Assembly (NCBI GenBank): GCA_963721805.1
Contig: CAVRJY010000005.1
Span: forward strand, 19,318 to 83,317
Reading direction: 5' to 3'
DNA length: 64,000 bases
Source of the DNA: Nitrospirota bacterium
GTDB taxonomy: Bacteria > Nitrospirota > Thermodesulfovibrionia > Thermodesulfovibrionales > JdFR-86
This document shows, one piece after another, positions 29,520 through 62,709 of this stretch. The position numbers were made by a program, and so were the translations under genes. The notes beneath the pieces were generated by a model, which was not told the origin of the DNA, searched no databases, and saw only the letters and a program-made list of their open reading frames with translations. Position 1 is the first letter of the stretch; each line of letters starts with the position of its first letter.

Positions 29520-29524
29520 CTACC

Positions 29525-30601: not shown

Positions 30602-30666
30602 GAGTTGATTATACCACTTCGATTATTGCCGGCCGATTGTCCCCACTCACCGCTGAGCTGTGCCCC

Positions 30667-34506: not shown

Positions 34507-35391
34507 GTGGAGCTGCTCGACGTGGTGTTTTCGGTCTCGGGCGTCAAGACCAACATACTCCTGCCGCCGCTGGTCGCGATGGCGATATCGTTTTTCACCT
34601 CGATGGGCGGCGTGTCGGGCGCGTTTCTGCTCCTGCCGTTTCAGATGAGCGTGCTTGGGTACACGAGCCCCTCGGTGAGTTCCACTAACTTCGTCTATAA
34701 CATCGTCGCGATCCCAAGCGGGGTCTACCGTTTTATACGCGAGGGCAGGATGTTCTGGCCGCTTACGATGGTGATAATCCTCGGCACCCTGCCCGGCGTA
34801 TTCATCGGATATTACGTCCGCGTGCTGTGGCTCCCGGACCCCAGGCGGTTCATGGCGTTCGCGGGCTGGGTGCTCTTATACATCGGCGGCAGGCTCGCAT
34901 ACGGCCTTATCAGGGAGCGCGCGACTATGCCTGTCGCGATACCGCCCAGGGGCTCGGTCGTTACCCCGGTCTCGGTAAGGCTGCGGCGCGTGGAGTTCGA
35001 TTTCCTCGGGGAGCGCCACGGCTTCAGCACGATAGGGATGTTCATGCTCGCGCTGGTGGTCGGAGTGATCGGCGGGACGTACGGCATCGGCGGGGGCGCG
35101 ATCATCGCGCCGTTTTGCGTCGCGATATTCGGGCTCCCGGTATACGCGGTGGCAGGGGCGGCGCTCATGGGCACGCTTATCACCTCGGTCGCGGGGGTCG
35201 CATTCTATAGCATCATACCCTCGGCCCAGAACACCCAGCCTGACTGGGCATTAGGCGCTTTATTCGGCGCGGGCGGGTTCGTGGGGGTATATCTCGGCGC
35301 AAGATGCCAGAGGTTTGTGCCCCAGCGCTACATCAAGATCATGCTCACCCTTGTCCTCCTCGGTCTCGCGGCGAAGTATTTGCTAAGGTAG
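34507..35391 (+). CDS. TauE/SafE-family (TSUP) anion exporter
   Basis: 294-aa polytopic ORF with duplicated 4-TM halves (GGVSGAFLLLP, GIGGGAIIAP). Confidence 0.75.
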   Translation: MELLDVVFSVSGVKTNILLPPLVAMAISFFTSMGGVSGAFLLLPFQMSVLGYTSPSVSSTNFVYNIVAIPSGVYRFIREGRMFWPLTMVIILGTLPGVFIGYYVRVLWLPDPRRFMAFAGWVLLYIGGRLAYGLIRERATMPVAIPPRGSVVTPVSVRLRRVEFDFLGERHGFSTIGMFMLALVVGVIGGTYGIGGGAIIAPFCVAIFGLPVYAVAGAALMGTLITSVAGVAFYSIIPSAQNTQPDWALGALFGAGGFVGVYLGARCQRFVPQRYIKIMLTLVLLGLAAKYLLR

Positions 35392-35398
35392 GGTACTG

Positions 35399-35597
35399 AC
35401 GCTTTTTGGAAAGTCGCACTAAATCGCGTGATACTGCGTCGCGAGTCAAAAATCGCCCTCGGAGTACATCCCAGTACACCATCGGGCGGTCTTCTCGCCG
35501 CTCCTAGTCTGACGCGATTTATCGCGCTTTGGTGTAGCCTCGCATAATCGCGCGAGCGGTCAACGGCATTTATTAGAGCATCCCAGCCGCTGCCCCT
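35399..35597 (-). repeat. SRE copy R11 (mosaic: head type 2, body type 1, tail type 2)
   Basis: Head GGTCAACGGCAT at 35558-35569, TTATTAGAGCAT, and extension CCCAGCCGCTGCCCC at 35582-35596. Confidence 0.85.
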
Positions 35598-35725
35598 CGG
35601 ACTGGCGATGAAATATTTCATGAGATAAAATCCGCTCGCGATGTTTTGAAAAATATTGTATTATTCATCATCCTTGCGAGTTGAGCAAATTTTGTATCTA
35701 AAGGGGTTTATTGGAGGTTAATCCG

Positions 35726-36310
35726 ATGGAACTAAAATTAAAAGATATGTATAGCTATCTGCTCTCACATACTTTCCCGGGGTTATTTTTTGGGATAGAG
35801 ATAATGTTTATATTCAAATGGTTTATGAACGTCGATTTGATATCACCAATCATTATTGAATTTACAAAGCCTGACAATGCAGGCATCGTCATTGCAGTGG
35901 TTGTTCTCTCATATGCTTTTTCCACACTATTGGGTTTCGTACTCGACGGTATCCATCATTTTGTATATGAAGATTTCATGCGAAAATTCGATGGATATAA
36001 AGATGACGATATTTTTGCTGCTATAAATACAATTGAGCGGATGCAAATATACCAACATTTCGTTGAAGATGATTACTGGTACCCCTATGAAGCATATGCA
36101 AATATTAGCATTGCAATGTTGCCTGGCCTTTTTTTATTGACATACAAGCTAATTAATTTAGGGATTACGTGGTGGATCATCTGCTTATTTACTATCGTAT
36201 ATATTTTAATCCTCTATATTATGTTTTATGAAGCAAAATGCACATATGAATGCTGCTGCGATAGAGAAGAACAAATAATTAAAAATTTTAGCAATGATAA
36301 GAAAGAATAA
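35726..36310 (+). CDS. AT-rich polytopic membrane protein, hypothetical
   Basis: GGAGG RBS then ATG at 35726. Four or so hydrophobic segments and a CCC motif near the C-terminus. Confidence 0.5.
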   Translation: MELKLKDMYSYLLSHTFPGLFFGIEIMFIFKWFMNVDLISPIIIEFTKPDNAGIVIAVVVLSYAFSTLLGFVLDGIHHFVYEDFMRKFDGYKDDDIFAAINTIERMQIYQHFVEDDYWYPYEAYANISIAMLPGLFLLTYKLINLGITWWIICLFTIVYILILYIMFYEAKCTYECCCDREEQIIKNFSNDKKE

Positions 36311-36334
36311 TGGCATTTTTACAGAGAACGATGA

Positions 36335-36850
36335 ATGGTTAAAATAGAAGTGGTCAAACAATTTGATGAGCAAACATTGAAAGATATCTTATTTATCCTA
36401 AGAGATTCTTTCCCATTACAATGGCGGTATGATGATGATTATACCTATTACAAATCAATGTTAAACAATAAAATGAACATACATCTTTTTCTAATAGTTG
36501 ATGGTAGGAGAGTTGGTTATTTACATGCAATCCCTCATGTTGATGCGGCAGATGAATTGAAAGAAGATGATCCAGAAATGCGACCCGACTCTTCAATGTA
36601 TTATATTGAAGTCGTAGGAATACGTTCCGAATACCGAGGCAGAAAAGGTTTTACGCTCATGCTTGAAGCATTAAAGCATGAATGCAGATTAAGAGGCATA
36701 AGCAAAATATCGTTGCATGCAAGGGTTCACACTAATTTTAGCGAGATTATTCAACATAAACTAAATGTCGATACTATAAGAAGGGTTGAGAAATGGAAAC
36801 ATTACAATTTTGAAGAACCTACTGATTATATTGAGGCATCTTTCTATTAA
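36335..36850 (+). CDS. GNAT-family N-acetyltransferase (cargo paralog 1)
   Basis: 171 aa, YIEVVGIRSEYRGRKGFTLMLEAL acetyl-CoA-binding-type motif. About 35 percent identical by eye to 51807..52331. Confidence 0.65.
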   Translation: MVKIEVVKQFDEQTLKDILFILRDSFPLQWRYDDDYTYYKSMLNNKMNIHLFLIVDGRRVGYLHAIPHVDAADELKEDDPEMRPDSSMYYIEVVGIRSEYRGRKGFTLMLEALKHECRLRGISKISLHARVHTNFSEIIQHKLNVDTIRRVEKWKHYNFEEPTDYIEASFY

Positions 36851-36904
36851 TTACACCAACCGATGAGTTCTTCGACACTTGAGTCCACCGGCACCCATGA
36901 TAAT

Positions 36905-37096
36905 CTCTAATTAATGCCGTTGACCTTGGGGTGCGGGGTCCAGCGGCTGGATCGCATAACCCCGAAAGCGCGCCCAAATCGTCTTCAGACAAGGAAACGG
37001 CGAGGAAAACGTCCGATGGTGTACTGAGACGTACATCGAGGACGGATTTCCGAGACGTGACGCAGTATCAAGCGATTTGGAGCGCTTTGAAGAAGG
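36905..37096 (+). repeat. SRE copy R12 (mosaic: head variant a, body type 2, tail type 1)
   Basis: CTCTAATTAAT plus GCCGTTGACC at 36916-36925. Tail ...GCGCTTTGAAGAAGG ends 7 nt before the PilZ stop. Confidence 0.85.
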
Positions 37097-37103: not shown

Positions 37104-37391
37104 CTAGTTGAACTGCACTCCCACGCGGTAGAGGTTGGAGGTTAGGCGCGAGGTCCACATCACCTGCGCCGTACACGGACAGTGCATGATCTCGGCGCTC
37201 GTGATCTCGATCTCGGTGCCCGCCTGCAGCGGGACGGAAGTGAACAGGCCCGCGCCGTTACGGCTCAGGTTGGTCGTAACGGCCGAGCAGGTGTCATACT
37301 CCGTGCGGCCGTAAACGCTCTTAAGGTAAGCGTAGTCGATCGTAACGCTGTAGAAATCGCGCCTGTCAGTCCTCTTGTCAGATGCCGCCAT
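37104..37391 (-). CDS. PilZ domain protein
   Basis: 95 aa with RRDFY (RxxxR-like) and NLSRNGAG (D/NxSxxG) c-di-GMP-binding motifs. Confidence 0.65.
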   Translation of the reverse strand: MAASDKRTDRRDFYSVTIDYAYLKSVYGRTEYDTCSAVTTNLSRNGAGLFTSVPLQAGTEIEITSAEIMHCPCTAQVMWTSRLTSNLYRVGVQFN

Positions 37392-40872: not shown

Positions 40873-40902
40873 TAACTCTGAATATTACGAGCGAAGAGGG
40901 AA

Positions 40903-41034
40903 AGGGGGCCGGATGGCCCCTTCTCTTTTATGGGAGGGGTCCGTGACCCCCGCAGGTGTACTGGGATGTACTCCGAGGGAGCGGCTGCGAGCCGTGACGA
41001 CGTATCACGCGATTTCGGCTCGCTTTCTAGAAGG
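40903..41034 (+). repeat. SRE copy R13 (5'-truncated; begins at the terminator-like hairpin)
   Basis: GGGGGCCGGATGGCCCC plus T-run (40904-40930), GGGGTCCGTGACCCC (40936-40950), then body and tail. The tail overlaps the ccsA-like stop codon. Confidence 0.75.
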
Positions 41035-44181: not shown

Positions 44182-44789
44182 CTCGGCACCTTTATTATAT
44201 GCCTCACCGCGCCGCCTGAGTGCGGGAGTTCGACGTCTATGACCTCGCACTCGACCCCGGCGATCTCCTCTTCGTAACGCGGCCCTTTATTCAGCACGAA
44301 AGCGCCGCCGGGGGCGACTATGTCCCCTGCCCCTTCAATAAATTCCCTCACACTAAATAGCGCGCGCGTCACCGCGATGTCCGCGCTGATGCCCGAGGCC
44401 TCCGAGACCTTGGCGTTGATAACCGTGATGCCCGTAAGATTGAGCCGCCGGATGATATGCCGAAGGAACGCGCACTTCTTCTTCGCGGGCTCGATCAGGT
44501 ATACCGTGATATCCGGGCGCATTATCTTGATAGGCACGCCCGGAAACCCCGCGCCGGTGCCGATGTCCGCGAGGCTGTGCACCTCCGGGCCGATAGCGCG
44601 CAGGTATAGGCAGCTGTCCAGCATGTGCTTTACAGCGATCTCATTGGCGTCGCGCAGCGCGGTGAGGTTGTGCGTGCGGCCCCAGCGGCTGAGCTCGTCC
44701 ATGTGAAGCACCATAGCCGAGACCTGCGCGGCGGTGGCCTCGATGCCGAGGCTGGCGAGGCCGTCTGAGATTATCTCATCAGGCCGCAC
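44178..44789 (-). CDS. rsmG: 16S rRNA (guanine527-N7)-methyltransferase
   Basis: 203 aa with SAM motif DIGTGAGFPGVPIKI. Immediately downstream of mnmG. Confidence 0.85.
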   Translation of the reverse strand: MRPDEIISDGLASLGIEATAAQVSAMVLHMDELSRWGRTHNLTALRDANEIAVKHMLDSCLYLRAIGPEVHSLADIGTGAGFPGVPIKIMRPDITVYLIEPAKKKCAFLRHIIRRLNLTGITVINAKVSEASGISADIAVTRALFSVREFIEGAGDIVAPGGAFVLNKGPRYEEEIAGVECEVIDVELPHSGGAVRHIIKVPR

Positions 44790-46642
44790 TCCGGCGGTCC
44801 CTCTCTAACATTATGATCAGGAGTGAGAGAGCGACCGGCGTGACGCCGGGTATGCGGCTTGCCTGCCCGAGGCTCCGGGGCCTGACCTCCTCGAGCTTGT
44901 GGCGCACCTCGGTCGAGAGGCCGGTGATCGCGGCATAGTCGAACCCGGCCGGGATCGCCATCGACTCGGCGCGCCGCAGCTTCTCTGCCGCCTCGCGCTG
45001 GCGCAGGATGTAGCCCGAGTACTTCACCTCGGTCTGGATCAGCATCGCATCGTCGGCACTGAACTCGGCGGCGGGCGGCGATATGCGCGAGATCGAGGGA
45101 TAGTCCATCTCCGGCCGCTTAAGCAGCGTATCGAGCATCACACTCTCGGCAATCGGCGAGGTCCCGCGCTCGCTAAGTATTGGATTTGCGTCACGCGGCT
45201 TGCAGCGCGTCGTGCGGATGCGCTCGATCTCGGAAAGCACCAAGCGGCGCTTTTCGCTAAACGCACGGTGGGCATCATCAGAAATCAGCCCGGCCTCGTG
45301 GCCCTTGTCCGTCAGGCGCATCTGGGCGTTGTCGTGGCGCAGCAGCAGGCGGTATTCCGCGCGCGAGGTGAACATGCGGTACGGCTCGTTCGTGCCCTTT
45401 GTCACGAGATCGTCTATCAGGATGCCGATGTACGCCTCGTCGCGGCCAAGGATCAGCGGAGCGCGGCCCTGAAGCGAGAGCGCGGCGTTTATCCCGGCCA
45501 TTATCCCCTGTGATGCGGCCTCCTCGTACCCGGAGGTCCCGTTTATCTGCCCGGCGAGGTAGAGACCGCGTACCGCCTTGGTCTCTAATGAGTGCGTGAT
45601 CTGCGTGGGGTATACGAAGTCGTACTCTATCGCGTATGCCGGGCGCATGATCTCGGCGGCCTCAAGCCCCGCGATAGAATGAACCAGCGCGACCTGCACG
45701 TCATATGGCAGGCTCGTCGAGATCCCGTTTGCGTAGTATTCCTCGGTCTTCAGCCCTTCGGGCTCCAAAAATACCTGATGCCGCTCGCGCGCGGCAAAGC
45801 GCATCACCTTGTCCTCTATCGAGGGGCAGTATCTGGGGCCTATGCCTGTTATCTGTCCACTATACAATGGTGAGCGGTCCAGAGATCCACGGATGATCTC
45901 GTGCGTGGTCGCGTTCGTATATGTCATGTAGCACGGGAGCTGTTGGTTCGTGATCTCGCGGGTCGAGTGCGAAAACGGGGGCGGCGGGACGTCGCCATAG
46001 TGAGCGGTCGTCTTTGAGAAGTCTATCGAGCGGGCGTCTATACGGGGCGGTGTGCCGGTCTTGAGGCGGCCCAATCTCAGGCCCATCGCAGGCGAGAGAT
46101 TCGGATATGCCTAACGCGGGGAACTCACCGGCGCGTCCTGCGCTGATCTGGCTCAGGCCTATGTGCATCAGTCCGTTCAGAAACGTACCGGTCGTGACGA
46201 TCACCGAGCGCCCAGCGATGAACACGCCGATGTTATCGATAACGCCTGTGACTCGTCCGCCCTCATGCGTTATGTCCACGATATTGGCCTGCCGGATCGT
46301 GAGGCCCGCCTGCGCCTCGATCGACTGGCGCATATTGGTGCGGTACAGGGCGCGGTCGGCCTGCGCGCGGAGCGACCAGACGGCGGGGCCCTTAGAGAGG
46401 TTGAGCATCTTGAAGTGGATGCCCGAGCGGTCGGTGACGCGCGCCATCTCGCCGCCCAGCGCGTCGATCTCGCGGACTAGGTGGCCCTTCGCGAGCCCGC
46501 CGATGGCCGGGTTGCAGGACATCTGGCCTATCGTATCGAGGTTCATCGTGCAGAGGCACGTACGCATACCCATCCTAGCCGCAGCCAGAGCGGCCTCGCA
46601 ACCGGCGTGGCCGGCACCGATAACTATTACGTCGAATGACAT
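44779..46642 (-). pseudogene. mnmG: tRNA uridine 5-carboxymethylaminomethyl modification enzyme MnmG, split by one frame change
   Basis: ORF 45860..46642 (GAGHAGCEAA FAD motif) and ORF 44779..46086 (GRLKTGTPPRID onward) together give full-length MnmG. The shift lies near 46085-46100. Confidence 0.85.
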
Positions 46643-46674
46643 CCCTTATAATAACATCCGCGCTATTTCAGTCG

Positions 46675-46863
46675 CCTTCTTCAAAGTCGCGCGAAATACG
46701 CGTGATACTGCGTCAGGGCTTCAGAAATCCGTCCTCAACGTACGTCACAGTACGCCTCGGACGTTTTCATTGCCCTTCCTTGTCTGACACAATTTCTCGC
46801 GCTTTAGCAATGAGCTGCCTGCGCGTGCGAGCGGTCAACGGCTTTGATAAGAGGGGGCACTCG
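46675..46863 (-). repeat. SRE copy R14 (head type 2, body type 2)
   Basis: Tail CCTTCTTCAAAGTCGCG at 46675 (32 nt from the mnmG start). Head GGTCAACGGC at 46843-46852 plus TTTGATAAGAG. Confidence 0.85.
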
Positions 46864-46903
46864 GCCCGGCCGCTGCTCCGGAGCTCCCGAGGAAGGCTAT
46901 TAA

Positions 46904-47479
46904 TTAAGCAGAAGATGTTTTATTGAAAGCTCTCCCTGAGTGAATCCATGAAGCAATTACAGCTATCAATAAAACCAAATCAAATAAAATAAGGCATTTT
47001 TCCCAGCGTGTAATATTTTGAAGAGAGTCATAATTAGATATCAAAAAAATCAATAAAGGACCAAGCGGCATAAGAACCAGTAAAAAATTACGCCCCAAGG
47101 CTACAAGCCATAGCTGTCCGCTAGTACTTTGGTGAAAGGTTTCCCATTCAAATGCATCATTGTAAGTTAATAATCTAATTCTTGGATATAAAATGCTTGA
47201 AAAATACCTTCCGATTCTGTAAACCATAAGCTGATTATCGTAATACAGCAAAACAAGAGGTGCCGTTATAATTGGAGCAACGAGCATAATTGATGCAAAT
47301 GATTCTTCTCCATGGAGTTTAACATAAGCCGCAAGTGCACCAGCTAAAATCACTATCAGAACATTAAGTATTGTTGAGTTAATTGTAAGTCTAGTCTTTT
47401 GTTCATCGCGCAAGGCTCGGTATTCTGTGAGATAAACTTCAATATCTTTCTTGTCCTGTATTTCTTCTGACATTAACAA
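46904..47479 (-). CDS. AT-rich polytopic membrane protein, hypothetical
   Basis: 191-aa ORF with four hydrophobic segments. No family recognised. Confidence 0.5.
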   Translation of the reverse strand: MLMSEEIQDKKDIEVYLTEYRALRDEQKTRLTINSTILNVLIVILAGALAAYVKLHGEESFASIMLVAPIITAPLVLLYYDNQLMVYRIGRYFSSILYPRIRLLTYNDAFEWETFHQSTSGQLWLVALGRNFLLVLMPLGPLLIFLISNYDSLQNITRWEKCLILFDLVLLIAVIASWIHSGRAFNKTSSA

Positions 47480-47669
47480 ACACCTTTACCTATCAACCTT
47501 GTCCCAGCTTTCGTTGAAGCCCTAAGGGCTCGCCTTGCCATTATCATAAACTGCCTACATTTATCTGTCAATAATATTTTGCAGCAAGACAACCGTGAGG
47601 CTTAATCATATCGCCATATTCGCATACGTTCGGAACTGGTTTATGGGAAAGAGTTCCCATGGCATCTCT

Positions 47670-48032
47670 CTTCATTAACCATAGTTAATCGAAAGTTAAT
47701 AGAAAACGAATGGCCCCTAATTTTTCCTATTATCTTCGGTTTATATATGAACCAAAGTTTGGCATTCTTTAGTGTATAGTGGAGGCTATGAGTATGATAG
47801 AGTCCTATTTGATGGTCGCGGCAAGTGTTATGGATGTCCGCGCCGCGTGTTCGGATAATGGGCCAAAAACATCGCTTTTTATCCGAACATTCGAACAGGG
47901 GAACTTTTCAAAAGCTAGTAAATCCGGTGGGTTAGCTCCGATTTTGCCCCCAACATCCGAACAAAATCGGCAAAAACGCGCGCGTGCGCGCGCGGTATGC
48001 ATATATATGCCTAAGCGGGGATATCCGAACAT
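47670..48032 (+). repeat. Module X2: second copy of the 360-bp AT-rich module, fused to the head of R15
   Basis: Collinear with X1. GGAGG then ATG at 47794. Inverted repeat GTTCGGATAA (47849-47858) / TTATCCGAAC (47879-47888). (CG)n palindrome at 47977-47994. Confidence 0.8.
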
Positions 48033-48201
48033 GCCGTTGACCGCTCGCACGCGCAGGCGGGAGAAACTTAAAGCGCGAGAAATCAGCGTCAGACTAGGAG
48101 CGGCGAGGGAAACGTCCGAGGGTGTACTGAGACGTACATCGAGGACGGATTTCCGAAGCCGCGACAACGTATCACGCGATTTGGCGCGCTTTGGAGAAAA
48201 C
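48033..48201 (+). repeat. SRE copy R15 (head type 2, body type 2)
   Basis: GCCGTTGACC at 48033-48042. Tail GATTTGGCGCGCTTTGGAGAAAAC. Confidence 0.85.
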
Positions 48202-50295: not shown

Positions 50296-50688
50296 ATGTG
50301 TTCATCGGTGCCGAGGGCCAAGATAATGATCGTGGAGGACGAGCGGCTGCTGGCCCTCAACCTCAGGCTGTCGCTGGAGGGTATGGGCTACACCGTCACC
50401 GGCATCGCGGATTCGGGCGAGTCTGCCGTGAGCGAGGCCGGGGCCTCGAGGCCGGACATCATCCTGATGGACATAAAGCTCAAGCCCGGCTCGATGGACG
50501 GCATAGAGGCCGCCACGCGCATCAGGGACCTCTACCACATCGGGTATATTTACGTCACCGGCAACTCCGACGAGAGCACCTACCAGCGGGCGATGAAGAG
50601 CATGCCGCTGGGGTACTTCAACAAGCCGCTCAACGAGGATACCTTAGACCAGGCCATACAGGAAGCCATCACCCGCGACTCCAACTAG
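50296..50688 (+). CDS. Single-domain response regulator receiver
   Basis: IMIVEDERLL...DIILMDIKL...KP. Start uncertain (50254, 50296 or 50326). Confidence 0.8.
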   Translation: MCSSVPRAKIMIVEDERLLALNLRLSLEGMGYTVTGIADSGESAVSEAGASRPDIILMDIKLKPGSMDGIEAATRIRDLYHIGYIYVTGNSDESTYQRAMKSMPLGYFNKPLNEDTLDQAIQEAITRDSN

Positions 50689-50695: not shown

Positions 50696-50891
50696 TCTTT
50701 TTCAAAGCGCTCCAAATCGCTTGATACGTCGTCATCAGTCGAAAATAGTCCTCGGAGTATGTCCATATACACCTGCGTCCTATTTTCGCCTTCTTCCTAG
50801 TCTGAAGACGATTTGGCCGCGCTTTCGGGGGTTGGTCGCGGCCCAGCCGCTGGACCCCCGCACCCCCAAGGTCAACGGCTTAGATTAGATA
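50696..50891 (-). repeat. SRE copy R16 (head variant a; private P3 AAAATAG/CTATTTT; GTAT/ATAC P4)
   Basis: Tail GTCTTTTTCAAAGCGCTCC at 50696. Head GGTCAACGGC at 50870-50879 plus TTAGATTAGATA. Confidence 0.85.
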
Positions 50892-51215
50892 TTATCTGAC
50901 AATCGAACGGACGACTTTTAGGATGAGGCGCTGTTTATCTTCACCAGCTTCCTTGACTAGGCTGCTGATTTCCTTTGCCAGTTCCTGTGAAGATTTTTTA
51001 TGATGTGAGAACTCGAAGAAATCCTTCATATCCATTTTCAAAGACTTGGCTATTGCCGCCAGTGTATCCATCGAGGGGAACCCCCTCCCTACTTCAATCC
51101 GGCTAAGGTGCTTCGGGTCTATATCTATCATCTCGGCAAGCTTTTCCTGAGACAAGCCCCTCAGCTTTCGCAGTTCTTTTATCCTTGCCCCAAGTAATCC
51201 TTTTGGTGTCTCCAT
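50892..51215 (-). CDS. XRE-family helix-turn-helix transcriptional regulator
   Basis: 107 aa, LGARIKELRKLRGLSQEKLAEMIDIDPKHLSRIEVG. Confidence 0.8.
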   Translation of the reverse strand: METPKGLLGARIKELRKLRGLSQEKLAEMIDIDPKHLSRIEVGRGFPSMDTLAAIAKSLKMDMKDFFEFSHHKKSSQELAKEISSLVKEAGEDKQRLILKVVRSIVR

Positions 51216-51409
51216 AATCTTCCTCCATCAATAATCGCTTTTCAGGAGGGTTTTTATAACTATCTTAAATGGCGATAAGTAATTGCCTTATCTACATTTG
51301 ATATAGTAAACTCTACATTGCAGATAGATATTAGAGGCAAGTCCGGCTTAATATGCTGAATCATGATGCCGTAAGGGGCACGATATGACGGAAGACAACG
51401 AACTCTAAA

Positions 51410-51805
51410 ATGACACACCTGCACAACAGCCAGCCTGTCGGCATCCACTTCCTTGTCGAGTTTTTCGGCTGCTCGGAGGAGCAGTTGGATTCGCTCCGCT
51501 TCTGGAAGAAGCTGCTTGCGGATGCGGTCAAGGGCAGTGATATAAAGATGCTGAATAAGCACTTCTATCATTTCAAGCCCCATGGCATAACCGGATATCT
51601 CCTGCTTTCCACGTCCCATATATCGGTGCATACATGGCCCGAGTATGCCTATGTCGCCTGCGATGTCTTTAGCTGCGGCGGGAAAGCCGAGACTAAAAGC
51701 ATTGTAAAGCACATTACGGACAATCTTAATCATGACACGGTGAAGATAAAGAAAATGAAACGGGGATTTAGGATTTTTTCTGACAAAGGAGGTCATCTTA
51801 GCTAA
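51410..51805 (+). CDS. S-adenosylmethionine decarboxylase-like (SpeD-family pyruvoyl enzyme), atypical processing site
   Basis: HFLVEFFGC...GITGYLLLSTSHISVHTWPEYAYVACDVFSCG aligns to the prokaryotic SpeD core. The usual Glu-Ser cleavage pair reads Thr-Ser. Confidence 0.65.
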   Translation: MTHLHNSQPVGIHFLVEFFGCSEEQLDSLRFWKKLLADAVKGSDIKMLNKHFYHFKPHGITGYLLLSTSHISVHTWPEYAYVACDVFSCGGKAETKSIVKHITDNLNHDTVKIKKMKRGFRIFSDKGGHLS

Positions 51806-51806
51806 T

Positions 51807-52331
51807 ATGGTTGGGAAAATCGGTTTTCAAACTGAGATAATTCAAGGATATAGAGAAGAATATTTCAAATCAATTTTAAAGCTCGAACCATTATTCCCGA
51901 TTTCCATCCAAGACTCAAAAGATAAAACAATTGAACATTTGAAAACACCTTCAAACATTAATATTTTTCTCAGGAAAGATGAAAGCATAATCGGCTGGAT
52001 CTTGGGGACGCCACAAAATACTATCTATGAAGAACTAAAAACCGATGATATTGAGATCAAGCCCGATGACGAAATGTATTATATTGATAAAGTTGTTGTA
52101 GTACCTGAACACCGCGAAGGTCTAACCTTTCTCAGGTTGGGAGACGCGCTAATCAATGAGGCAAAAAAACGAGGTTGTCATAAAATATCTGCACATATCG
52201 TATCTGACAACGGACTCCATAAAATAATTATAAGGAAATTTGGCAAATTTATCATAACAAGGAGAAAAGTGTCTTTAGCAATACATGATTTTATTCCATT
52301 TGAGTATATTGAAATATGCTTACCTAAATGA
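51807..52331 (+). CDS. GNAT-like acetyltransferase (cargo paralog 2)
   Basis: 174 aa. Shares blocks N-I-x-x-FL, ELKxDD, PDxxMYYI, RG-x-x-KIS-x-H with 36335..36850. Confidence 0.55.
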   Translation: MVGKIGFQTEIIQGYREEYFKSILKLEPLFPISIQDSKDKTIEHLKTPSNINIFLRKDESIIGWILGTPQNTIYEELKTDDIEIKPDDEMYYIDKVVVVPEHREGLTFLRLGDALINEAKKRGCHKISAHIVSDNGLHKIIIRKFGKFIITRRKVSLAIHDFIPFEYIEICLPK

Positions 52332-52338
52332 CTTACCG

Positions 52339-52881
52339 ATGAAAGGCGAGGGCACCAAGGAGAACAGCACAGAAAAGCTGTTGTCTTATGGCGGCAGGAT
52401 TGCTGAGCTATCCATCGGAATTACCGCAAGTCAATTTTTAGTGTTCGTTTTCGATTATCTTCTTTATCCGTTTATCGTTTATCAATTCGGGCTTCTCATG
52501 GGCGGGATTGTAATGACTATTTTTTCATTGATTGCTTGTTTACTTGTAATGAAAGTTTATGATTGGTCTAAACGGGATTGGTTAGGCATTGAGTCAATAA
52601 AACGGTTAAAGGAATACACAGGAGGTAGAAAAACAGGAAAGATACTGTCATGGATATTAAGACAGAGTAATCCAGTGGTCATGCTATTTCTCTCAATCAA
52701 GTTTGACCCATTTATCGCAACTATATACATGAGACATGGAAGCCACCAATATAACGGCATGAGCAAGAGGGATTGGAAGATATTCTTTACAAGTCTTGTA
52801 CTCAGTAATATCTATTGGACACTCGCAGCCTTCACAGGGGTTACGGTCATAGAGTACGCATGGAGGCACTTATTCAAATAA
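52339..52881 (+). CDS. AT-rich polytopic membrane protein, hypothetical
   Basis: About 180 aa with four or five hydrophobic segments. The stop TAA at 52879-52881 directly abuts the R17 head. Confidence 0.5.
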   Translation: MKGEGTKENSTEKLLSYGGRIAELSIGITASQFLVFVFDYLLYPFIVYQFGLLMGGIVMTIFSLIACLLVMKVYDWSKRDWLGIESIKRLKEYTGGRKTGKILSWILRQSNPVVMLFLSIKFDPFIATIYMRHGSHQYNGMSKRDWKIFFTSLVLSNIYWTLAAFTGVTVIEYAWRHLFK

Positions 52882-53058
52882 GCCGTTGACATTGGGGGCG
52901 CGGGGGGCGTCCGTTGCAGTGCCCCCCGAAAGCGCGCCCAAATCGTCTTCAGACAAGGCAGGGCGAGAAGACCGCCCGATGGTGTACTTGGGCGTACATA
53001 GAGGGCGAGTCTTCGATGCCCAACGACGTATCAAGCAATTTGGCGCGCTTTAAAGAAA
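52876..53058 (+). repeat. SRE copy R17 (head variant b, body type 1)
   Basis: GCCGTTGACA at 52882-52891. Tail GCGCGCTTTAAAGAAAGC ends 5 nt before the rodA stop. Confidence 0.85.
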
Positions 53059-53063
53059 GCGAG

Positions 53064-54182
53064 CTAGTAGAAAAGTTCGAACCGTCTGGTTCGAACGTTG
53101 ATTAACAAGGCGGCGGCTATGTAGTTGCCGGCCAGCGCCGTCCCCCCATAGCTCATGAACGGCAGCGGTATGCCCACGACCGGCATCAGCCCCAGCGTCA
53201 TCGAGACGTTGATCACGGTATAGAGGAAGAACATGAAGGTGATGCCCGTTGCGAGCATGCGGCCGAAGTCGTCCTTGGCCTTCCCTGCAGTATCGAGGCC
53301 CCGGTGCAGGAGCGTGAAGTACAGCCCCAGCAGCGCCAGCGAGCCTACCAGCCCCCACTCCTCGGCGAAGATCGAGAAGATGAAGTCCGTGTGCTTCTCT
53401 GGCAGGAACCTAAACGGCCCCTGCGTGCCCTTGAGGTAGCCCTTGCCGAACAGCCCGCCCGAGCCCACCGCGACCTTCGACTGGTTGATGTGGTAGCTCA
53501 GGCCGTCGGGGTCGCTGTCGGGGTCCACGAAGGACAGTATGCGGTTTTTCTGGTAGTCCTTAAGGTGGTCCCAGGCCACGGTGCCCGCGACCGGCAGCAC
53601 GACCAGCGAGACCAGCACGCTCACGATCAGGAGCTTCTTGCCGACGCCCTTGGCGAGCACCATCAGCACGAACATCCCAAGCAGTATCACCGCGGTGCCG
53701 AGGTCCGGCTGCTTGATGATCATCAGCACCGGTACGAGCGTGAAGGACAGAAACGCGGTTATCACCTGCCGGGCCGTAAGCGCCCCCTCTATGCCCGAGA
53801 GGTAGCGCGAGAGCATCATCAGGTATGCGAGCTTGAAGACCTCGCTCGGCTGGAACTGCACCCCGCCGACGGATATCCACCGCTTGGCCCCCATGCCGGT
53901 ATGACCGAGCACGAAGACCAGCGCGAGCAGCACGATGCCCAGGGCGTAGAGGTATGGCGCGGCGCGGTGAAACCAGGTGTAGTCCACGCTCAGGATCAGC
54001 GACATCATCCCCAGCCCGATCAGCAGCCAGTAGGTCTGTCGCACGTAGAACGTGGGCCAGCTGGTATCGAAGAGCGGCCGCGTGGCGCTGAAGATCGTCA
54101 TGATCCCGAGCGCGGTGATCGAGAGCACGATGCCGAGCGTCGGCCAGTCCATGTTCGCCAGCAGCCGTCTGTCAATGCGCAC
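53064..54182 (-). CDS. rodA: Rod-shape peptidoglycan glycosyltransferase RodA (SEDS family)
   Basis: 372-aa polytopic ORF (PEKHTDFIFS, MSYGGT motifs). GTG start at 54182. Downstream of mrdA. Confidence 0.9.
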   Translation of the reverse strand: MRIDRRLLANMDWPTLGIVLSITALGIMTIFSATRPLFDTSWPTFYVRQTYWLLIGLGMMSLILSVDYTWFHRAAPYLYALGIVLLALVFVLGHTGMGAKRWISVGGVQFQPSEVFKLAYLMMLSRYLSGIEGALTARQVITAFLSFTLVPVLMIIKQPDLGTAVILLGMFVLMVLAKGVGKKLLIVSVLVSLVVLPVAGTVAWDHLKDYQKNRILSFVDPDSDPDGLSYHINQSKVAVGSGGLFGKGYLKGTQGPFRFLPEKHTDFIFSIFAEEWGLVGSLALLGLYFTLLHRGLDTAGKAKDDFGRMLATGITFMFFLYTVINVSMTLGLMPVVGIPLPFMSYGGTALAGNYIAAALLINVRTRRFELFY

Positions 54183-54196
54183 TGTTGGCTCCGGGA

Positions 54197-54405
54197 ACGT
54201 TTAATAAGCCGTTGACCTTGGGGTATGGGGTCCAGCGGCGGAGCCGCGACCAACCCCATAAGGTGCGATAAATCGTCTTCAGGCAAGGAAGGGCGAGGAA
54301 AACGTCCGCAAGTGTACTGTGATGTACTCTGGAGGACGGATTTCCGAAGCCCTGACGCAGTATCAAGTGATTTAGCGCGCCTTCAAAAGGTGTGCAAACA
54401 GCTCT
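54197..54405 (+). repeat. SRE copy R18 (solo; head variant a, body type 2) inserted between mrdA and rodA
   Basis: GCCGTTGACC at 54208-54217 and tail GCGCGCCTTCAAAAGG at 54375-54390. Flanked by AATGCGCACTGTTGGC at 54174-54189 and 54406-54421. Confidence 0.85.
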
Positions 54406-56182
54406 AATGCGCACTGTTGGCCTCCAGGTTGGCGAGGTATGTTTCTATTGCCTTCTTCGCTATGGGCGCGGCGGCCGAGCCGCCGTGGCCTCCGTGCTCG
54501 ACGAGCACCGCGCATGCGATCTCCGGGTGCGAGGCCGGGGCATAGGCCACGAACCAGGCGTGGTCCTTAAGCGCGTCCGGCGTTGCGCTCGCGAGGCGTT
54601 TCTTGTTCGCGTTTGAGTATACCTGCGCGGTGCCGGTCTTGCCCGCGATCACGAAATCGTCGGAGTGCGCGGCGTGGGCCGTGCCGCGCGGGTCGTTGAC
54701 CACGCCTATGAGCGCGCGCTTTACGAGCTCTATGTTCTCGGGGCTGAGGTCATAGGAGTCCGCCGCGGCGCGCTTTGCCTCATACGGGGCTATGCGCTTG
54801 AGCGTCGGCTCGTAGAGCCTGCCGTCGGCCGCGACGGTCGCGATCATCCGCGCGAGCTGAAACGGCGTGACCGCGACGTAGCCCTGCCCGATTGCGGCGT
54901 TGTACGTCTCGCCGAGGTACCAGCTCTCGCCCTTTGTCTTGAGCTTCCACTCCTCGTCCGGTATGAGCCCCGGCCGCTCCATCGCGAGCCCCAGCGTGCT
55001 CGTCGCACCGAGGCCGAGGCGGCGGGCCATCTTCGCTATCGAATCGATCCCGGTCAGCGCGCCGACGGTATAGAAGTACACGTCGCACGACTGTATCAGC
55101 CCGGCCTCGAACGCGAGCGCGCCGTGGCCGCGCTTCTGCCAGCAGCCGAACCGCCACTTGCCGTACTGCAGGCCGCCGTTGCAGACGACGACGCGGCCCG
55201 GCGTGACCTTGCCGGACTCCAGCGCTGCCAGCCCTGTGACTATCTTGAAGGTCGAACCCGGCGGGTACTGGCTTTGGAGCGCGCGGTTGAGCATCGGCTT
55301 TTCCGGGTCGTTTATCAGGCGGCCCCAGTCGCCGCTCTTTATCCCGAAGCTGAAGAGGTTCGGGTCGTAAGAGGGCTTGCTCACCATCCCCAGGATCTCG
55401 CCGGTTGAGGGGCGGATTGCGACGAACGCGCCCTTGCGGTCCCCGAAGGACTCCTCGACGGCCTTCATCATCTCGATGTCTATGCTCAGGTGCAGGCCCT
55501 CGCCCTTCCGGGGCGGGGTCTGAGCGATCACGCGTATCTGCTTGCCGAGGGCGTTGACCTCTATCGCGCGCTCCCCGGGCACGCCGCGCAGGGTCTTGTC
55601 ATAGAGCTTCTCGACCCCGAACTGCCCGATGAAGGCCTGCATCGGGACGTCGGCGAATTCGGGCAGCTCGGCCTGCTCCGGGGTGATGCGGCCGAGGTAT
55701 CCCAGCAGGTGCGCCCCGACCTCGCCGTAGAGGTACTTCCGCGACTTGTCGACCATCACGTTCAGGGCCGGGAAGTCCGAGAGCCGGGCCTCGACCTTCG
55801 AGACCTCCTCGAGGTTCAGGCCCTCGCGGACGATGATCGGGTCAAGCGTATTTCTTGCGCGGTCGGCGCGTTTCTGGAGCCACTGGGGGTCGAGGCCGAG
55901 GAAATCCGCGGCGCGGCCGAGGTCCGTTATGTCGATGAGCTCTGGGTTTAAGGTGATCGAGAACGCGGCCGAGCTCTGGACGAGCGCCTTGCCCCAGCGG
56001 TCGTAGATGATGCCGCGCGGGGCCGGGACCTTCTCGAGCCTCAGGCGGTTTTCAAACGCCATGCGGCTGTATTCGGCGCCCCTGAGTATCTGCAGGTGCC
56101 AGAGCCGTATCGCCAGGATCGAGAAGAATATCCCGATGAAGAAGATGATCGCGAATGAGTTTATGTTGCGTTCAGCTCTCAT
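54404..56182 (-). CDS. mrdA: Penicillin-binding protein 2 (elongasome transpeptidase)
   Basis: 592 aa with SxxK (STFK), SxN and KTG (AGKTGTAQ) motifs. Located in the mre operon. Confidence 0.9.
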   Translation of the reverse strand: MRAERNINSFAIIFFIGIFFSILAIRLWHLQILRGAEYSRMAFENRLRLEKVPAPRGIIYDRWGKALVQSSAAFSITLNPELIDITDLGRAADFLGLDPQWLQKRADRARNTLDPIIVREGLNLEEVSKVEARLSDFPALNVMVDKSRKYLYGEVGAHLLGYLGRITPEQAELPEFADVPMQAFIGQFGVEKLYDKTLRGVPGERAIEVNALGKQIRVIAQTPPRKGEGLHLSIDIEMMKAVEESFGDRKGAFVAIRPSTGEILGMVSKPSYDPNLFSFGIKSGDWGRLINDPEKPMLNRALQSQYPPGSTFKIVTGLAALESGKVTPGRVVVCNGGLQYGKWRFGCWQKRGHGALAFEAGLIQSCDVYFYTVGALTGIDSIAKMARRLGLGATSTLGLAMERPGLIPDEEWKLKTKGESWYLGETYNAAIGQGYVAVTPFQLARMIATVAADGRLYEPTLKRIAPYEAKRAAADSYDLSPENIELVKRALIGVVNDPRGTAHAAHSDDFVIAGKTGTAQVYSNANKKRLASATPDALKDHAWFVAYAPASHPEIACAVLVEHGGHGGSAAAPIAKKAIETYLANLEANSAH

Positions 56183-59782: not shown

Positions 59783-60893
59783 ATGACTAAAGAGGAAATA
59801 AAGCTGCAGGCAGGCCTTCTTAGGGAGCGCACCGATTCCCTAAGAGGGTATCTTTGATCTCCCCACCCTCACGCACAAGCTCGAAGAGATAGACAAGGCA
59901 CTCGGGGCCGAGGACACATGGGCCTCGCACGAGCGCGCCACCGAGCTCAACCGCCAGAAGACCCGCATCCAGTCCACGCTCGCGCCGTTTGAGGCCGCCG
60001 ACCGGAAGATGACATACATCGAGAGCTCAATCGGGATGCTCGACGAGGAGGGCGGCGAGATGTTCGCCCCCGAGCTCGCGGCAGCGCTTAACGAGCTCAT
60101 CCCTGAACTTGACGGCCTCGAGCTTCGGTGCCTGATGTCCGGCGAGCGCGACATCTCAAACGCGATAGTCACGATACATCCCGGCGCGGGCGGCACCGAG
60201 AGCCAGGACTGGGCCCAGATGCTGATGCGCATGTACCTCAGGTGGGCCGAGACGCACGGCCTCGCAACCGAAATCCTCGACCTCCAGCCGGGCGACGAGG
60301 CCGGGATCAAGAGCGTCACGTTCGAGGTCACCGGGCCGTACGCATACGGCAACCTCAAGACCGAGGCCGGGGTGCACAGGCTCGTGCGCATCTCGCCGTT
60401 TGACGCGGCGAAGCGCCGCCACACCTCGTTTTCCGCGGTGCTCGTATACCCCGAGGTCGAGGGCGACGTCGAGGTCGAGCTCAGGGACGAGGACATCAAG
60501 ATGGACACGTTCCGCGCCTCGGGCGCAGGCGGGCAGCACGTCAACAAGACCTCCTCCGCGGTGCGGCTGACGCACATCCCCTCGGGCGTGATCGTGAGCT
60601 GCCAGAACGAGCGCTCCCAGCACAGAAACCGCGAAAGCTGCATGAAGATACTGAAGGCCAAGCTCTACGACCTCGGGCTCAAGGAGCGGGAAAACGAGAT
60701 GGAGGGCATCGTCGGGGAGAAGAAGAATATCGCCTGGGGCAGCCAGATACGCTCGTACGTCCTGCAGCCCTATCGCATGGCGAAGGACCATCGCACGGGA
60801 GTCGAGATCGGCAACGTGGACGCGGTACTCGACGGGGCACTCGACCTGTTCATAAAAGCTGCACTGAAAAATAAACTGGGGCGGACGTCTTAA
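59783..60893 (+). CDS. prfB: Peptide chain release factor 2, requires programmed +1 frameshift
   Basis: ORF0 ATG 59783 runs to an in-frame TGA at 59855. The +1 frame continues DLPTLTHKLEE... into ORF 60009..60893 (SPF and GGQ motifs). Confidence 0.9.
59843..59858 (+). promoter_or_regulatory. prfB +1 frameshift site (AGAGGG TAT CTT TGA T)
   Basis: SD-like AGAGGG 3 nt upstream of slippery CTT followed by TGA (59852-59857), as in the classical RF2 autoregulatory site. Confidence 0.85.
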
Positions 60894-61084
60894 TAAAGTC
60901 GCGCCAAATCGCTTGATACTGCGTCACGGCTTCAAAGACACGCCCTCTATGTACATCCCAGTACACCATCGGGCGGTCTTCTCGCCCTTCCTTGTCTGAA
61001 GACGATTTCTCGCGCATTAAGTTTATTCTTGCGTAATCGTGCGAGCGGTCAACGGCATGATTTGAGCGGCCCATCCGCTGCCCC
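60888..61084 (-). repeat. SRE copy R19 (mosaic: head type 2, body type 1)
   Basis: The tail overlaps the prfB stop (TCTTAATAAAGTCGCGCC). Head GGTCAACGGCAT at 61047-61058. Extension GGCCCATCCGCTGCCCC. Confidence 0.85.
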
Positions 61085-61133
61085 AAAGTATGATTAGATT
61101 GGATATGTGCCATCACTTGACACTACAAAGTTG

Positions 61134-61912
61134 CTAAATTTTTTGGCCTGTATTAAGCCGGCGCTCTAGAGCCTCAAGGAACTTTATTGAAGATGCGACA
61201 TGTGTATAGATTAGTAGACTCTCTTCGTAATTGAGGAAGCTATTGTCATGGGCAAGGCTTTGGTCATTACGTACTTTATTAAAGGCCTCAAGTGTTGAAA
61301 TGCTTGATTTTAGGATGCGCTCGGTCATTTCTGACTCCAAATGCCCATGCACCTTTAATGTTTTAACGTACTCGCCAACCAAACTATGCAATGGCTTATC
61401 TTTGTCTGTGGATATTCCGTGATTTTGGCAAAGTACTCGAAGATACTTAATAGTAAAGGTGTGCAGTCTGTCCAAACCGACCTCTGGCTCGTGTTTTTCA
61501 ATGGATTCCCGGACAGCCCTTGCCAACACAGCAAACTCTCGTTCAGGACTATTAGGGGTTAATGTCACAACTTCTGGGATTCCTGCTGCCTCAGAAAGCC
61601 TTGCTAAGGCCCTGCGACAATCATCATACGCTTTTAACATTTCCGCGTTAGCGAACTCTACGGAAACGCACTGCATTAGGTCTGTGAGCAGTTTGGCAAC
61701 TACATCGTTTGACTCCCGTGTCCAAAATGCTCTAAGCCGGTTTGCTTTTTGAAACCACTTCCGAAGTTGTACTTCTCGTCTAAGATGCTTAACCCAGTAC
61801 TATCAAAGACAAACTCATCGAATAAGCGAGTTGTAAAATCCAAAACGTAGCCACTTCCCATGCCGAAGAGTGCCTCAAAGTTCCGTTTTTCAATTTTCGT
61901 TAGGTCAGACAT
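61134..61912 (-). pseudogene. Abortive-infection-type protein (Abi_C/HEPN-like C-terminus), frameshifted
   Basis: ORF 61700..61912 (GYVLDFTTRLFDEF...DEKY) and ORF 61134..61676 (VRNDQSLAH motif) join as ...GSGSKANRLRAFW... if homopolymer runs near 61745-61760 are corrected. Confidence 0.6.
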
Positions 61913-61966
61913 AGATTCCTGCGCACAAAAATAATTAATAAGTCTGCATCTACCTTAACCTTTTTA

Positions 61967-62021
61967 TATAGCGCGAGATTTCCGAGGCCGTGACGCAGTA
62001 TCCAGGAAATCTCGCGCTATA
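61967..62021. repeat. SRE fragment R20: foldback built from SRE pieces
   Basis: Perfect 17-bp inverted repeat TATAGCGCGAGATTTCC / GGAAATCTCGCGCTATA. Stem and loop carry GATTTCCGAGGCCGTGACGCAGTATC from the SRE 3' region. Confidence 0.6.
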
Positions 62022-62028
62022 ATGATTT

Positions 62029-62235
62029 TTACTGCCCTACGGCTGTGAGGTCGAGTTTAAAGAGCGTATTGATCGGGAATTTCTTGCTTGCTTCGAGGAT
62101 TTCGATACCCACGAGGTCGTTTTGGGCCGTAGTGTGCAGGGCTACTCCTTCCGCGATCTCGATCGCGCCGTCAGGCTTCTTGGGTGAAAGCTGTATATAT
62201 GCCGCATCGGCCTCTTTATCGTACTTAATTTTCAT
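62029..62235 (-). CDS. DUF2283 domain protein (putative antitoxin-like partner)
   Basis: 68 aa, MKIKYDKEADAAYIQL...LVGIEILEAS. Overlaps the upstream DUF4258 gene. Confidence 0.65.
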   Translation of the reverse strand: MKIKYDKEADAAYIQLSPKKPDGAIEIAEGVALHTTAQNDLVGIEILEASKKFPINTLFKLDLTAVGQ

Positions 62236-62476
62236 TTGCGCCTCCCCAAGCCTTACGCTTAAGCGGATATGCTGTTATTACAAATGTCTCGCCGCCTGAA
62301 AGCTCAAAAACCACCTTCAGCGGGTATCCAGAAAAGCGCTTTCCAAAGCGCTTGATCGCGACTTGTTTGCCCGTTTGAGACTCAAGGAGTTCAGGCGTGC
62401 CTATTGCCTCCGAAACATCATCAGCGGTGATCCCGTATAGTTTCATGTTGCTCCGGGCATGGCGCGACAGTCTCAT
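62225..62476 (-). CDS. DUF4258 domain protein (putative toxin-like partner)
   Basis: 83 aa, RLSRHARSNMKLYGITADDVSEAI...FVITAYP. Confidence 0.6.
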   Translation of the reverse strand: MRLSRHARSNMKLYGITADDVSEAIGTPELLESQTGKQVAIKRFGKRFSGYPLKVVFELSGGETFVITAYPLKRKAWGGANEN

Positions 62477-62513
62477 AAATTATTGTACCAGAATGTGAAA
62501 GTGATAAATAGTA

Positions 62514-62709
62514 TATATAACTAAGACGTTGACCTTGGGGGCGCGGGGGTCCAGCGGCTGGGCCGCGTCTAACCCCCGAAAGCGCGCCCAAATCGGCTTC
62601 AGACAAGGCAGGGCGAGAAGACCGCCCGATGGTGTACTGGGATGTACATAGAGGGCGAGTCTTTGAAGCCCAACGCAGTATCAAGCAATTTGGAGCGCTT
62701 TGAAGAAGG
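62514..62709 (+). repeat. SRE copy R21 (head variant a, body type 1; near-consensus reference copy)
   Basis: GACGTTGACC at 62525-62534. Helices listed in the findings. Tail ...GAGCGCTTTGAAGAAGG ends at 62709. Confidence 0.9.

Follow-up and report, generated by a model that had tools for sequence, protein, structure and literature searches.

The REP/BIME-RAYT systems and the elements derived from IS200/IS605 form hairpins, have no terminal inverted repeats, fold in a strand-specific manner and prefer the 3' ends of genes. Casposons and the acquisition of CRISPR spacers work with wide staggers; the former leave duplications of about 14-15 bp and the latter duplicates an entire repeat, 20-40 bp in length. 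Casposons often target gene 3' ends. Regarding target-primed retroposition, we know of no bacterial repeats that spread in this way. Correia/NEMIS, ERIC/IRU, RUP and RPE are bacterial structured repeats that resemble MITEs, the miniature inverted-repeat transposable elements (reviewed in PMC2229807), and the insertion sequences IS1549 and IS1634 generate on insertion direct repeats of variable length, from 8 to 514 bp, for which nobody has yet put forward a mechanistic model (PMC2266710). Here we analyse R18, a repeat lying between the cell-wall genes mrdA and rodA in a 64-kb stretch of an uncultured Nitrospirota genome (contig CAVRJY010000005.1; the whole stretch is called the window). R18 belongs to a family with about 20 copies on both strands of the window, located with an nhmmer family profile, and it is flanked by a long direct duplication, which an earlier reading of the letters alone (the original prediction) had pointed out.

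A long direct duplication flanks R18

The 16-mer AATGCGCACTGTTGGC occurs exactly twice in the window, once on each side of R18 (Table 1), and a search allowing up to 2 mismatches still returned just these two sites, where shuffled sequences lead us to expect 0.02. The strength of the flank match was reached in 0 of 300 and 0 of 1000 flank shuffles. Furthermore, the similarity continues beyond the 16-mer as TCCGGG (54190-54195) versus CTCCAGG (54422-54428), giving an extended duplication of 23 nt with one substitution and one 1-nt gap, whose gapped score was equalled by none of 1000 shuffles. In gene orientation the copies read CCTGGAGGCCAACAGTGCGCATT and CCCGGA-GCCAACAGTGCGCATT. Exact and mismatch-tolerant searches thus agree on the predicted 16-bp repeat, and the gapped alignment agrees with its degenerate extension to about 23 nt. 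The repeats had also been described as directly flanking an R18 of about 209 nt. The two copies do bracket R18, but the 16-mers do not abut its conserved core, a leader and a tail lying between them; the gap between the exact 16-mers is 216 nt, or 210 nt if the degenerate extension is assigned to the duplication.

The genes are encoded on the minus strand in the order mreB, mreC, mreD, mrdA, rodA. On this strand the end of mrdA reads GAG GCC AAC AGT GCG CAT TAG (EANSAH and stop) and the start of rodA reads GGAGCCAACA GTG CGC ATT GAC, so it was correct to assign the mrdA C-terminus and stop to the right copy and the rodA ribosome-binding region and GTG start to the left one. The AG of the mrdA stop are the first two bases of the insert in gene direction, i.e. 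the last two of the element tail. This junction is no assembly artefact, because an independent assembly, the sister contig L286, bears an element at the identical junction.

No internal promoter for rodA was predicted in R18 and no terminator-like site was predicted on the operon strand at R18, so rodA is presumably read through from mrdA. On the sense strand of the element, a weak terminator-like hairpin with a T-rich run lies just past the R18 3' end (54415-54434, plus strand). It is partly made of the mrdA-side copy of the duplication and could terminate transcription of the element in the sense direction, should that occur.

For both genomes that bear the repeat, the public annotation has RodA beginning at Met11, with 362 aa (P0001, P0121). 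The MRIDRRLLxN conserved in the relatives indicates that the true start is the upstream GTG in the window and the upstream ATG in L286, and the start was probably mis-called owing to the insertion.

The uninterrupted junction in relatives

The closest relatives free of the repeat are the Logan contigs L083 (RodA 80% identical) and L081 and L082 (84%); a search with MrdA for further relatives added no new close one. L083 has a single copy, AACCTGGAGGCCAATAATGCGAATTGACCG, in which mrdA ends with NLEANNAN and a TGA stop and the ATG of rodA lies 11 nt ahead of the mrdA end, and the mrdA/rodA overlap of L081 and L082 is 14 nt. In more distant Nitrospirota the overlap is mostly 14 nt (mostly within 4-17 nt), with the mrdA stop embedded in the rodA codons ATT GAC. 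The original prediction had placed the ancestral rodA start inside the last mrdA codons and had proposed to inspect this junction in related genomes. The empty sites indeed have an uninterrupted overlap of 11-14 nt, and the repeat-free relatives carry one copy of the 16-mer region, not two.

Regarding the point of insertion, the rodA-side copy reads GCG CAT TGA C in the mrdA frame and the mrdA-side copy reads GCG CAT T/AG, where the slash marks the junction. Since one copy has CAT T/AG and the other CAT TGA, the element entered after the T of the mrdA stop codon, and R18 is thus an insertion inside the ancestral mrdA/rodA overlap. An element was inserted, an ancestral overlap was duplicated and both reading frames were preserved. 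MrdA is kept to its last residue, with the same length as in L083. The duplication did preserve both genes, as had been claimed, because the upstream copy keeps the end of MrdA and the downstream copy keeps GGAG and the start codon of rodA. With a duplication shorter than about 17 nt, the rodA ribosome-binding site would be lost.

A family of hairpin-forming repeats

The members of the family have four parts: a 5' leader (TCTAAT.AATGCCGTTGACC), a G+C-rich hairpin module present in two or three alternative forms across the copies, a long hairpin of irregular shape that spans about 125 nt, and a variable tail. There is no open reading frame (ORF) in the approximately 210 nt of R18. Its folding was much stronger than that of shuffled sequence (z = -4.1 and -3.8, one value per strand), and 11 of the 30 predicted pairs show compensatory changes on both sides across 21 copies. 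G·U pairs are frequent on the sense strand (e.g. in 15 of 21 copies at one pair) and A·C pairs are rare, therefore folding belongs to the strand antisense to the operon; this agrees with the orientation originally given for R18. The element has no terminal inverted repeats: for both R18 and R11, alignment of the first 35 nt to the reverse-complemented last 35 nt gave a Smith-Waterman score of 5, which was equalled in more than half of 2000 shuffles, and no inverted repeat pairs were found in 54160-54440.

Rfam at its gathering score recognised only a tRNA in the whole window, and the region 54150-54450 had no match even at E <= 10. Plasmid and phage collections searched by blastn gave no match to the family. 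The pattern GCCGTTGACCN{20,50}AAAGCGCG retrieved only chance matches from metagenome and viral contigs, 0 of the 285 fetched loci fitting the family profile, and a tighter pattern retrieved nothing from the viral contigs. The family is undescribed; as a small structured genomic repeat it is of a known kind. The combination of features, in which inverted ends are absent, the duplications measure 23-33 nt and the junctions fall on stop codons, is not a known one. The family makes up about 6% of the window and yet is absent from relatives at 80% protein identity, so it has undergone a recent and massive expansion in this uncultured, Thermodesulfovibrionales-like lineage of Nitrospirota.

The copies are mosaics of one another. 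R12 and R16 share GACTAGTTG at an equal offset beyond the core, and R6 and R15 share flank sequence too, with modest significance. Furthermore, some copies are partial: R7 (24329-24457) and R13 (40947-41031) lack the 5' part but retain a 3' end that adjoins a host stop codon, and R9 (29443-29514) consists of the 5' part only.

A second long duplication at R11

Exact and gapped flank tests were applied to every copy and to every inverted pair, and they rose above chance at R18 and R11 only. R11 lies at the end of a TauE-family gene (homologues listed under Pfam PF01925). Its duplication is 33 nt long, with copies identical at 24 of the 33 positions, a match reached in none of 1000 shuffles. The geometry is that of R18: the functional gene end is on the 3' side of the element and the copy, which ends at the stop codon, is on the 5' side. 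This copy, a relic, directly adjoins the 5' terminus GGGGCAGCGG that is common to other copies of that subfamily, and it matches the functional gene end of the sister genome at 26 of 34 bases, the protein of which also has GLAMKY. In this relative, L287, the element likewise stands after the TAG of the TauE gene. In the relatives at 78% identity at this locus there is no element, and the TGA stop overlaps the ATG of the next gene.

Since the relic at R11 is non-coding and unneeded, selection for a lucky event cannot explain its duplication. This suggests that long duplications are a product of the insertion process and not a selected rarity. The proposed survey of the flanks of the other copies, carried out within the window, therefore had a mixed outcome, as R11 shows a decayed 33-nt duplication and all the others show none above chance. 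A lack of duplications at every other solo copy had been named as evidence against the original prediction, and R11 is the sole case that departs from it. Nevertheless, the absence at the other copies weighs little, because the L286 counterpart of R18 (x18), which has the same insertion site and junction, shows a duplication no better than chance (269 of 1000 shuffles) at a divergence of about 12%. It weighs little also because the DNA beside most 5' leaders is cargo swapped wholesale between genomes, which would remove relics.

Element ends and host stop codons

At ten copies a convergent gene ends within about 16 nt of the 3' end of the core, or inside it. Among the hosts confirmed by family or orthologue, 8 of 9 end in TAG versus 6 of 29 other ORFs with high G+C content at third codon positions (Fisher p = 4.5e-4). 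The native last residue, judged from repeat-free outgroups, is kept in RodA, MrdA, two response regulators and a nitroreductase, and TauE is off by one. The repeat-free orthologues stop at the matching residue with TGA, TAA or TAG (TGA or TAA in the case of RodA). Thus, the element lies on the stop codon of its host gene, the last bases of which it provides, and 0 to 16 nt of linker separate that stop from the core. The precision of the junction at several independent loci suggests a target rule. However, part of the pattern must be selection, because the antisense element stays open for more than 60 codons in another frame. The host gene of R6 had been a candidate for a gene ending in element-derived sequence; this was rejected, as an outgroup shows that its C-terminus is native.

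The sister genome and the later history of the site

L286 is an ENA contig with a RodA 94% identical to that of the window; the two sequences are collinear, their DNA being about 87.5% identical. It has repeat copies at the positions of R15-R20, including the mrdA/rodA junction, where x18 again shows CAT T/AG. The flank copies at this junction are identical at 10 of 16 positions (6 differences; GCATCGAATGCTCATT versus GCCGCCTATGCGAATT). In the window the flank copies are identical and share three derived bases (positions 6, 8 and 13) that are absent from both outgroups. One of them turns the rodA start into GTG, as against ATG in L286 and in both close outgroups; another, the C at position 13, is found in the mrdA-side copy of L286. 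Copies that had descended independently since before the split would not be expected to share derived bases. Because the window copies do share them and the L286 copies have diverged, the perfect 16/16 identity points to conversion or re-insertion in recent times rather than to an untouched footprint. Either the mrdA-side copy may have converted the rodA-side copy, thereby turning the rodA ATG into GTG, or the element may have been replaced in the window lineage, which would have brought a new duplication.

Identity between R18 and x18 is only 69%, and no alignment of their tails is possible, whereas R17 is 88% identical to its L286 counterpart. Furthermore, the linker from host stop to core cannot be aligned at 3 of the 6 sites shared by the window and L286, where the host stop and gene end are conserved. 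In-place replacement of the element at R18 is plausible. On the other hand, the rodA-side copies have GGAGCC in both genomes and the mrdA-side copies have GGAGGC in both, a pattern that favours one ancestral event, although selection on the Shine-Dalgarno sequence could mimic it. The leader TTTAATAAGCC had been considered as a unique marker of a single ancestral insertion, and this was weakened by R17, which carries the similar AATAAGCC.

Mechanism and alternatives

The explanation that we favour, with confidence a little above even, is that a non-autonomous hairpin repeat was inserted with a stagger of about 23 nt in the mrdA/rodA overlap, that long staggers are normal for the family and that the flanks were homogenised later. 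R18 would be a non-autonomous copy of a lineage-specific, hairpin-forming family that integrated at the T of the mrdA stop, inside an ancestral overlap of 11 nt. Integration would proceed via two strand breaks about 23 nt apart (20-35 nt for the family), and fill-in of the single-stranded flanks would leave the overlap duplicated, with the element between the two copies. Of these, the upstream one, with AG from the element tail, would then give an unchanged MrdA C-terminus and a TAG stop, and the downstream one would give the rodA Shine-Dalgarno sequence and start codon. The long stagger is presumably a normal property of the family and no freak event, and the duplication would be of sufficient length for an element to land in a gene overlap without harm. 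So long a duplication had been called atypical of classical DDE transposition; IS1549 and IS1634, however, make long and variable ones, and a DDE enzyme could therefore act in trans.

Several observations weigh against this explanation. Only 2 of about 20 copies have a duplication, and in two lengths (23 and 33 nt), which is a thin basis for a family trait. The 7-nt extension at R18 could be due to chance or to convergence on the GGAG Shine-Dalgarno sequence, the true duplication then being 16 nt. None of the sizeable ORFs of the window has a recognisable domain of a transposase, integrase, reverse transcriptase, Cas1 or HUH protein, and none appears in the gene table of L286; the sequence read comprised the 64-kb window and about 22 kb of the sister genome. 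Finally, given the low identity and unalignable tails of R18 and x18, the window and L286 may go back to one ancestral insertion or to independent ones.

If the family normally inserted with no or very short duplication, R18 could be an aberrant event of about 23 nt that alone was viable at the overlap, under the strong selection expected for two genes that are normally essential. The 17-18 other copies without a flanking repeat above chance, solo or paired, would fit. Nevertheless, these negatives are weak, as the duplication at the L286 junction is itself undetectable, and R11 has a 33-nt duplication that was not needed and whose non-coding relic is decaying. This functionless relic points to the insertion process, which speaks against the selection for a rare event that the original prediction had offered among its options; we consider such an event unlikely. 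More improbable still is copy-choice or template switching, in which a polymerase would have left its template at the stop codon, copied the repeat elsewhere and returned about 23 nt upstream, with no dedicated transposase. A route through a single strand or by copy-choice, target-primed synthesis included, would be in keeping with several features: inverted ends are lacking, folding is biased to one strand, the ends and tails are ragged with a variable linker from stop to core, R7 and R13 are truncated on the 5' side, the copies are mosaics, and R12/R16 and R6/R15 share sequence beyond the core. Strong hairpins, moreover, stall replication forks. However, there is no evident microhomology at either R18 junction, the flank sharing is only modestly significant and the outer junction on stop codons at at least 8 loci would be left unexplained.

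Site-specific or homology-guided integration would require the target sequence to be present already in the incoming element, in the manner of an attP core; the repeats would then be attL and attR and not a duplication made anew. The geometry is that of integrative elements that target gene 3' ends, and the differences between the R11 copies, counted by hand, are enriched at third codon positions. But the repeats are locus-specific and unrelated (mrdA sequence at R18, TauE sequence at R11), the 16-mer is in no other copy even with 2 mismatches and the window has no recombinase, which makes this explanation very improbable. We give the least credit to a process in two steps, a 23-nt tandem duplication that uncoupled mrdA from rodA and a later entry of the element into the new spacer. 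In its favour, tandem duplications of short length arise commonly, and intergenic DNA is where the family prefers to lie. Yet 23 is not a multiple of 3, and the intermediate, lacking a stop, would fuse MrdA in frame to RodA, which would probably be harmful; furthermore, the element exactly fills the space between the copies, R11 repeats the pattern and none of the loci examined has the tandem duplication without the element.

Going further than the staggered insertion favoured here, we mention, as a speculation that we ourselves find doubtful, that the family could represent a new kind of non-autonomous element. Its outer end would go to host stop codons and bring AG or TAG, its staggers would be wide and variable (23-33 nt), keeping it harmless even where essential genes overlap, it might use a single-stranded or RNA intermediate in a target-primed manner, and its inverted pairs would be landing pads for low-GC defence-type cassettes.

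An insertion between overlapping, normally essential cell-wall genes is rarely tolerated, and here the states before and after it can be read base by base. From the R18 junction one sees how the harm of an insertion is cancelled when the target duplication is long.

Paired copies, cargo and other features of the window

Table 1. Positions in the window of R18, R11 and the gene ends and duplicated sequences associated with the repeats.
Feature	Position	Strand	Basis or remark
R18 inserted repeat, 210 nt	54196..54405	+	nhmmer family profile, folding, covariation
R18 5' leader TTTAATAAGCC	from 54200	+	between left 16-mer and core
R18 conserved core: G+C-rich 5' hairpin module and ~125-nt covarying hairpin	54204-54388	+	family profile
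R18 tail GGTGTGCAAACAGCTCT, 17 nt	54389-54405	+	fills gap from core to duplication
rodA-side duplication copy	54174..54195	-	16 nt exact (54174-54189) and degenerate 6 nt; single in L083 and L081
rodA GTG start within left copy	54180-54182	-	sequence reading
rodA Shine-Dalgarno GGAG	complement of 54189-54192	-	in rodA-side copy
Relic of ancestral mrdA stop TGA, in frame	54172-54174	-	at rodA-side copy
mrdA-side duplication copy	54406..54428	-	16 nt exact (54406-54421) and degenerate 7 nt; encodes terminal MrdA LEANSAH
T of mrdA stop codon	base 54406	-	mrdA-side copy
mrdA (PBP2), 592 aa	54404..56182	-	NCBIfam TIGR03423, 634 bits
mrdA stop TAG, formed at insertion junction	54404-54406	-	L083 orthologue of equal length, with TGA stop
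rodA, 372 aa from GTG	53064..54182	-	NCBIfam TIGR02210, 398 bits; N-terminus MRIDRRL conserved in relatives
rodA stop TAG, adjoining outer end of R17	53064-53066	-	stop-codon comparison
R17 repeat copy	52877..53056	+	just downstream of rodA; junction TAC T/AG CTCGCTT
R11 repeat copy with leader and tail	35391..35594	-	core 35408-35572
TauE-family gene functional end (LGLAAKYLLR and stop TAG; gene 34507-35391), copy 1	35358..35390	+	outer (3') side of R11
Non-functional relic of TauE gene end (LGLAMKYFMR and stop), copy 2	35595..35627	+	inner (5') side of R11
Host stops abutting repeats	5704-5706, 16512-16514, 24310-24312, 35389-35391, 37104-37106, 41027-41029, 50686-50688, 53064-53066, 54404-54406

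Many copies form divergent pairs, with the 5' ends inward, around low-GC ORFs: R16/R17 (50699-53056), R19/R20 (60891-62706), R11/R12 (35408-37093), R14/R15 (46682-48197) and R9/R10 (29443-31201) in the window, and 11096-12169 and 1972-3242 in L286. The cargo ORFs between them look accessory or defence-related and include HEPN_Cthe2314, Abi_C, two GNATs, an AdoMet decarboxylase and unknowns. Comparison of the window with the sister genome shows orthologous host genes and flanking repeats around cargo that has no homology, the break coming at or near GCCGTTGACC. The repeat pairs behave like slots for exchangeable cassettes. R2 and R3 (5720-6073) stand head to head without cargo, their 5' leaders sharing the near-palindromic centre GGCATATCTAATTAAGCAG, and they are possibly an empty version of these slots. 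We also considered the inverted pairs as mobile units and rejected this, since there are no duplications flanking the pairs and the R11 relic, which lies inside its pair, argues for the insertion of single copies.

R10 and R15 have an additional upstream stretch of about 370 nt (30667-31038 and 47670-48042), 80-89% identical and containing the GC-alternating GCGCGCGCACGCGCGCGG; the extension at the R15 position is also conserved in L286. They were examined as possible parts of an autonomous element and discarded, as what lies next to them is no transposase but an alanine dehydrogenase and an OsmC-family protein. R4, R8 and R13 enclose a small G+C-rich hairpin module, AAGGGG.CCGG.TGGCCCCTT, that also occurs beside other copies (11708-11759, 40902-40953 and 28850-28900 in the window; near 3040-3070 and 2175-2200 in L286), which suggests a second, smaller repeat inserting into the first.

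Two further observations concern genes of the window. The mnmG/gidA ORF at 44779-46086 (region 44779-46680) matches the GIDA domain only from positions 184-390 onward. Its N-terminal part is apparently cut by a stop or frameshift near 46087, just inside R14 (46682-46846), which could be a sequencing error or a disrupted gene. Inside a PSP1-domain ORF, at 2584-2731, a 49-nt unit is present twice in tandem, with 94% identity and a distance of 99 nt between the two.

The recent expansion in an uncultured lineage makes this family a tractable case for studying how such elements spread. Moreover, the association with stop codons and the hypervariable, defence-like cargo hint at a role in genome architecture beyond parasitism.

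Comparison with known systems

The family resembles the MITE-like repeats in being 100-200 nt or longer, non-coding and present in many copies, with transcripts that would fold into long stem-loops, and in lying between genes or at gene ends, presumably co-transcribed with the neighbours, some copies abutting or entering reading frames. Of the features of classical MITEs it has the small size, the lack of coding capacity, the multiple copies and the stable stem-loop, but not the terminal inverted repeats, nor a TA or any other short fixed duplication (2-10 bp); the ends of the copies are too ill-defined to assess duplications of 2-4 bp, so this statement refers to the longer ones. Instead, it has duplications of 23 and 33 nt, a modular 5' hairpin and an outer end on host stops.

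REP units are 20-40 nt long with a GTAG head, whereas the unit here has 185-210 nt and a distinct 5' end (given above). The elements derived from IS200/IS605 leave no target duplication, unlike R18 and R11, and there is no Y1/HUH gene in the window; nor did we find the fixed 4-5-nt target of that class, since the bases before the junction vary except for the T of the stop. Regarding integrons, the copies alternate in orientation following the neighbouring host gene and do not form an attC cassette array; only one core-like motif (GTTGACC, at the 5' end) was seen and no integrase was found in the window. With casposons there is only a resemblance, because these carry inverted ends, cas1 and a polymerase, none of which is in the window. 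Target-primed reverse transcription would be in line with the variable duplications of tens of bases, the 5'-truncated R7 and R13, the absence of inverted ends and a possible carry-over of 3' flanking sequence, and the strand bias of the G·U pairs would be a further, indirect hint. However, the R18 family has no A-rich tail and the window no reverse transcriptase.

Finally, IS1549 and IS1634 (DDE elements of the IS1634 family) are insertion sequences of 1.5-2 kb with a transposase gene and inverted ends, whereas the repeat described here has about 200 nt and neither of these, and no such gene is nearby. Nevertheless, they share with it the long and variable duplications, the 23 and 33 nt of R18 and R11 falling within their range. 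If duplications of 20-35 nt are the rule of the family, its mechanism would be unlike that of almost all known bacterial repeats and insertion sequences, and the few precedents, IS1549 and IS1634, are likewise without a mechanistic model.

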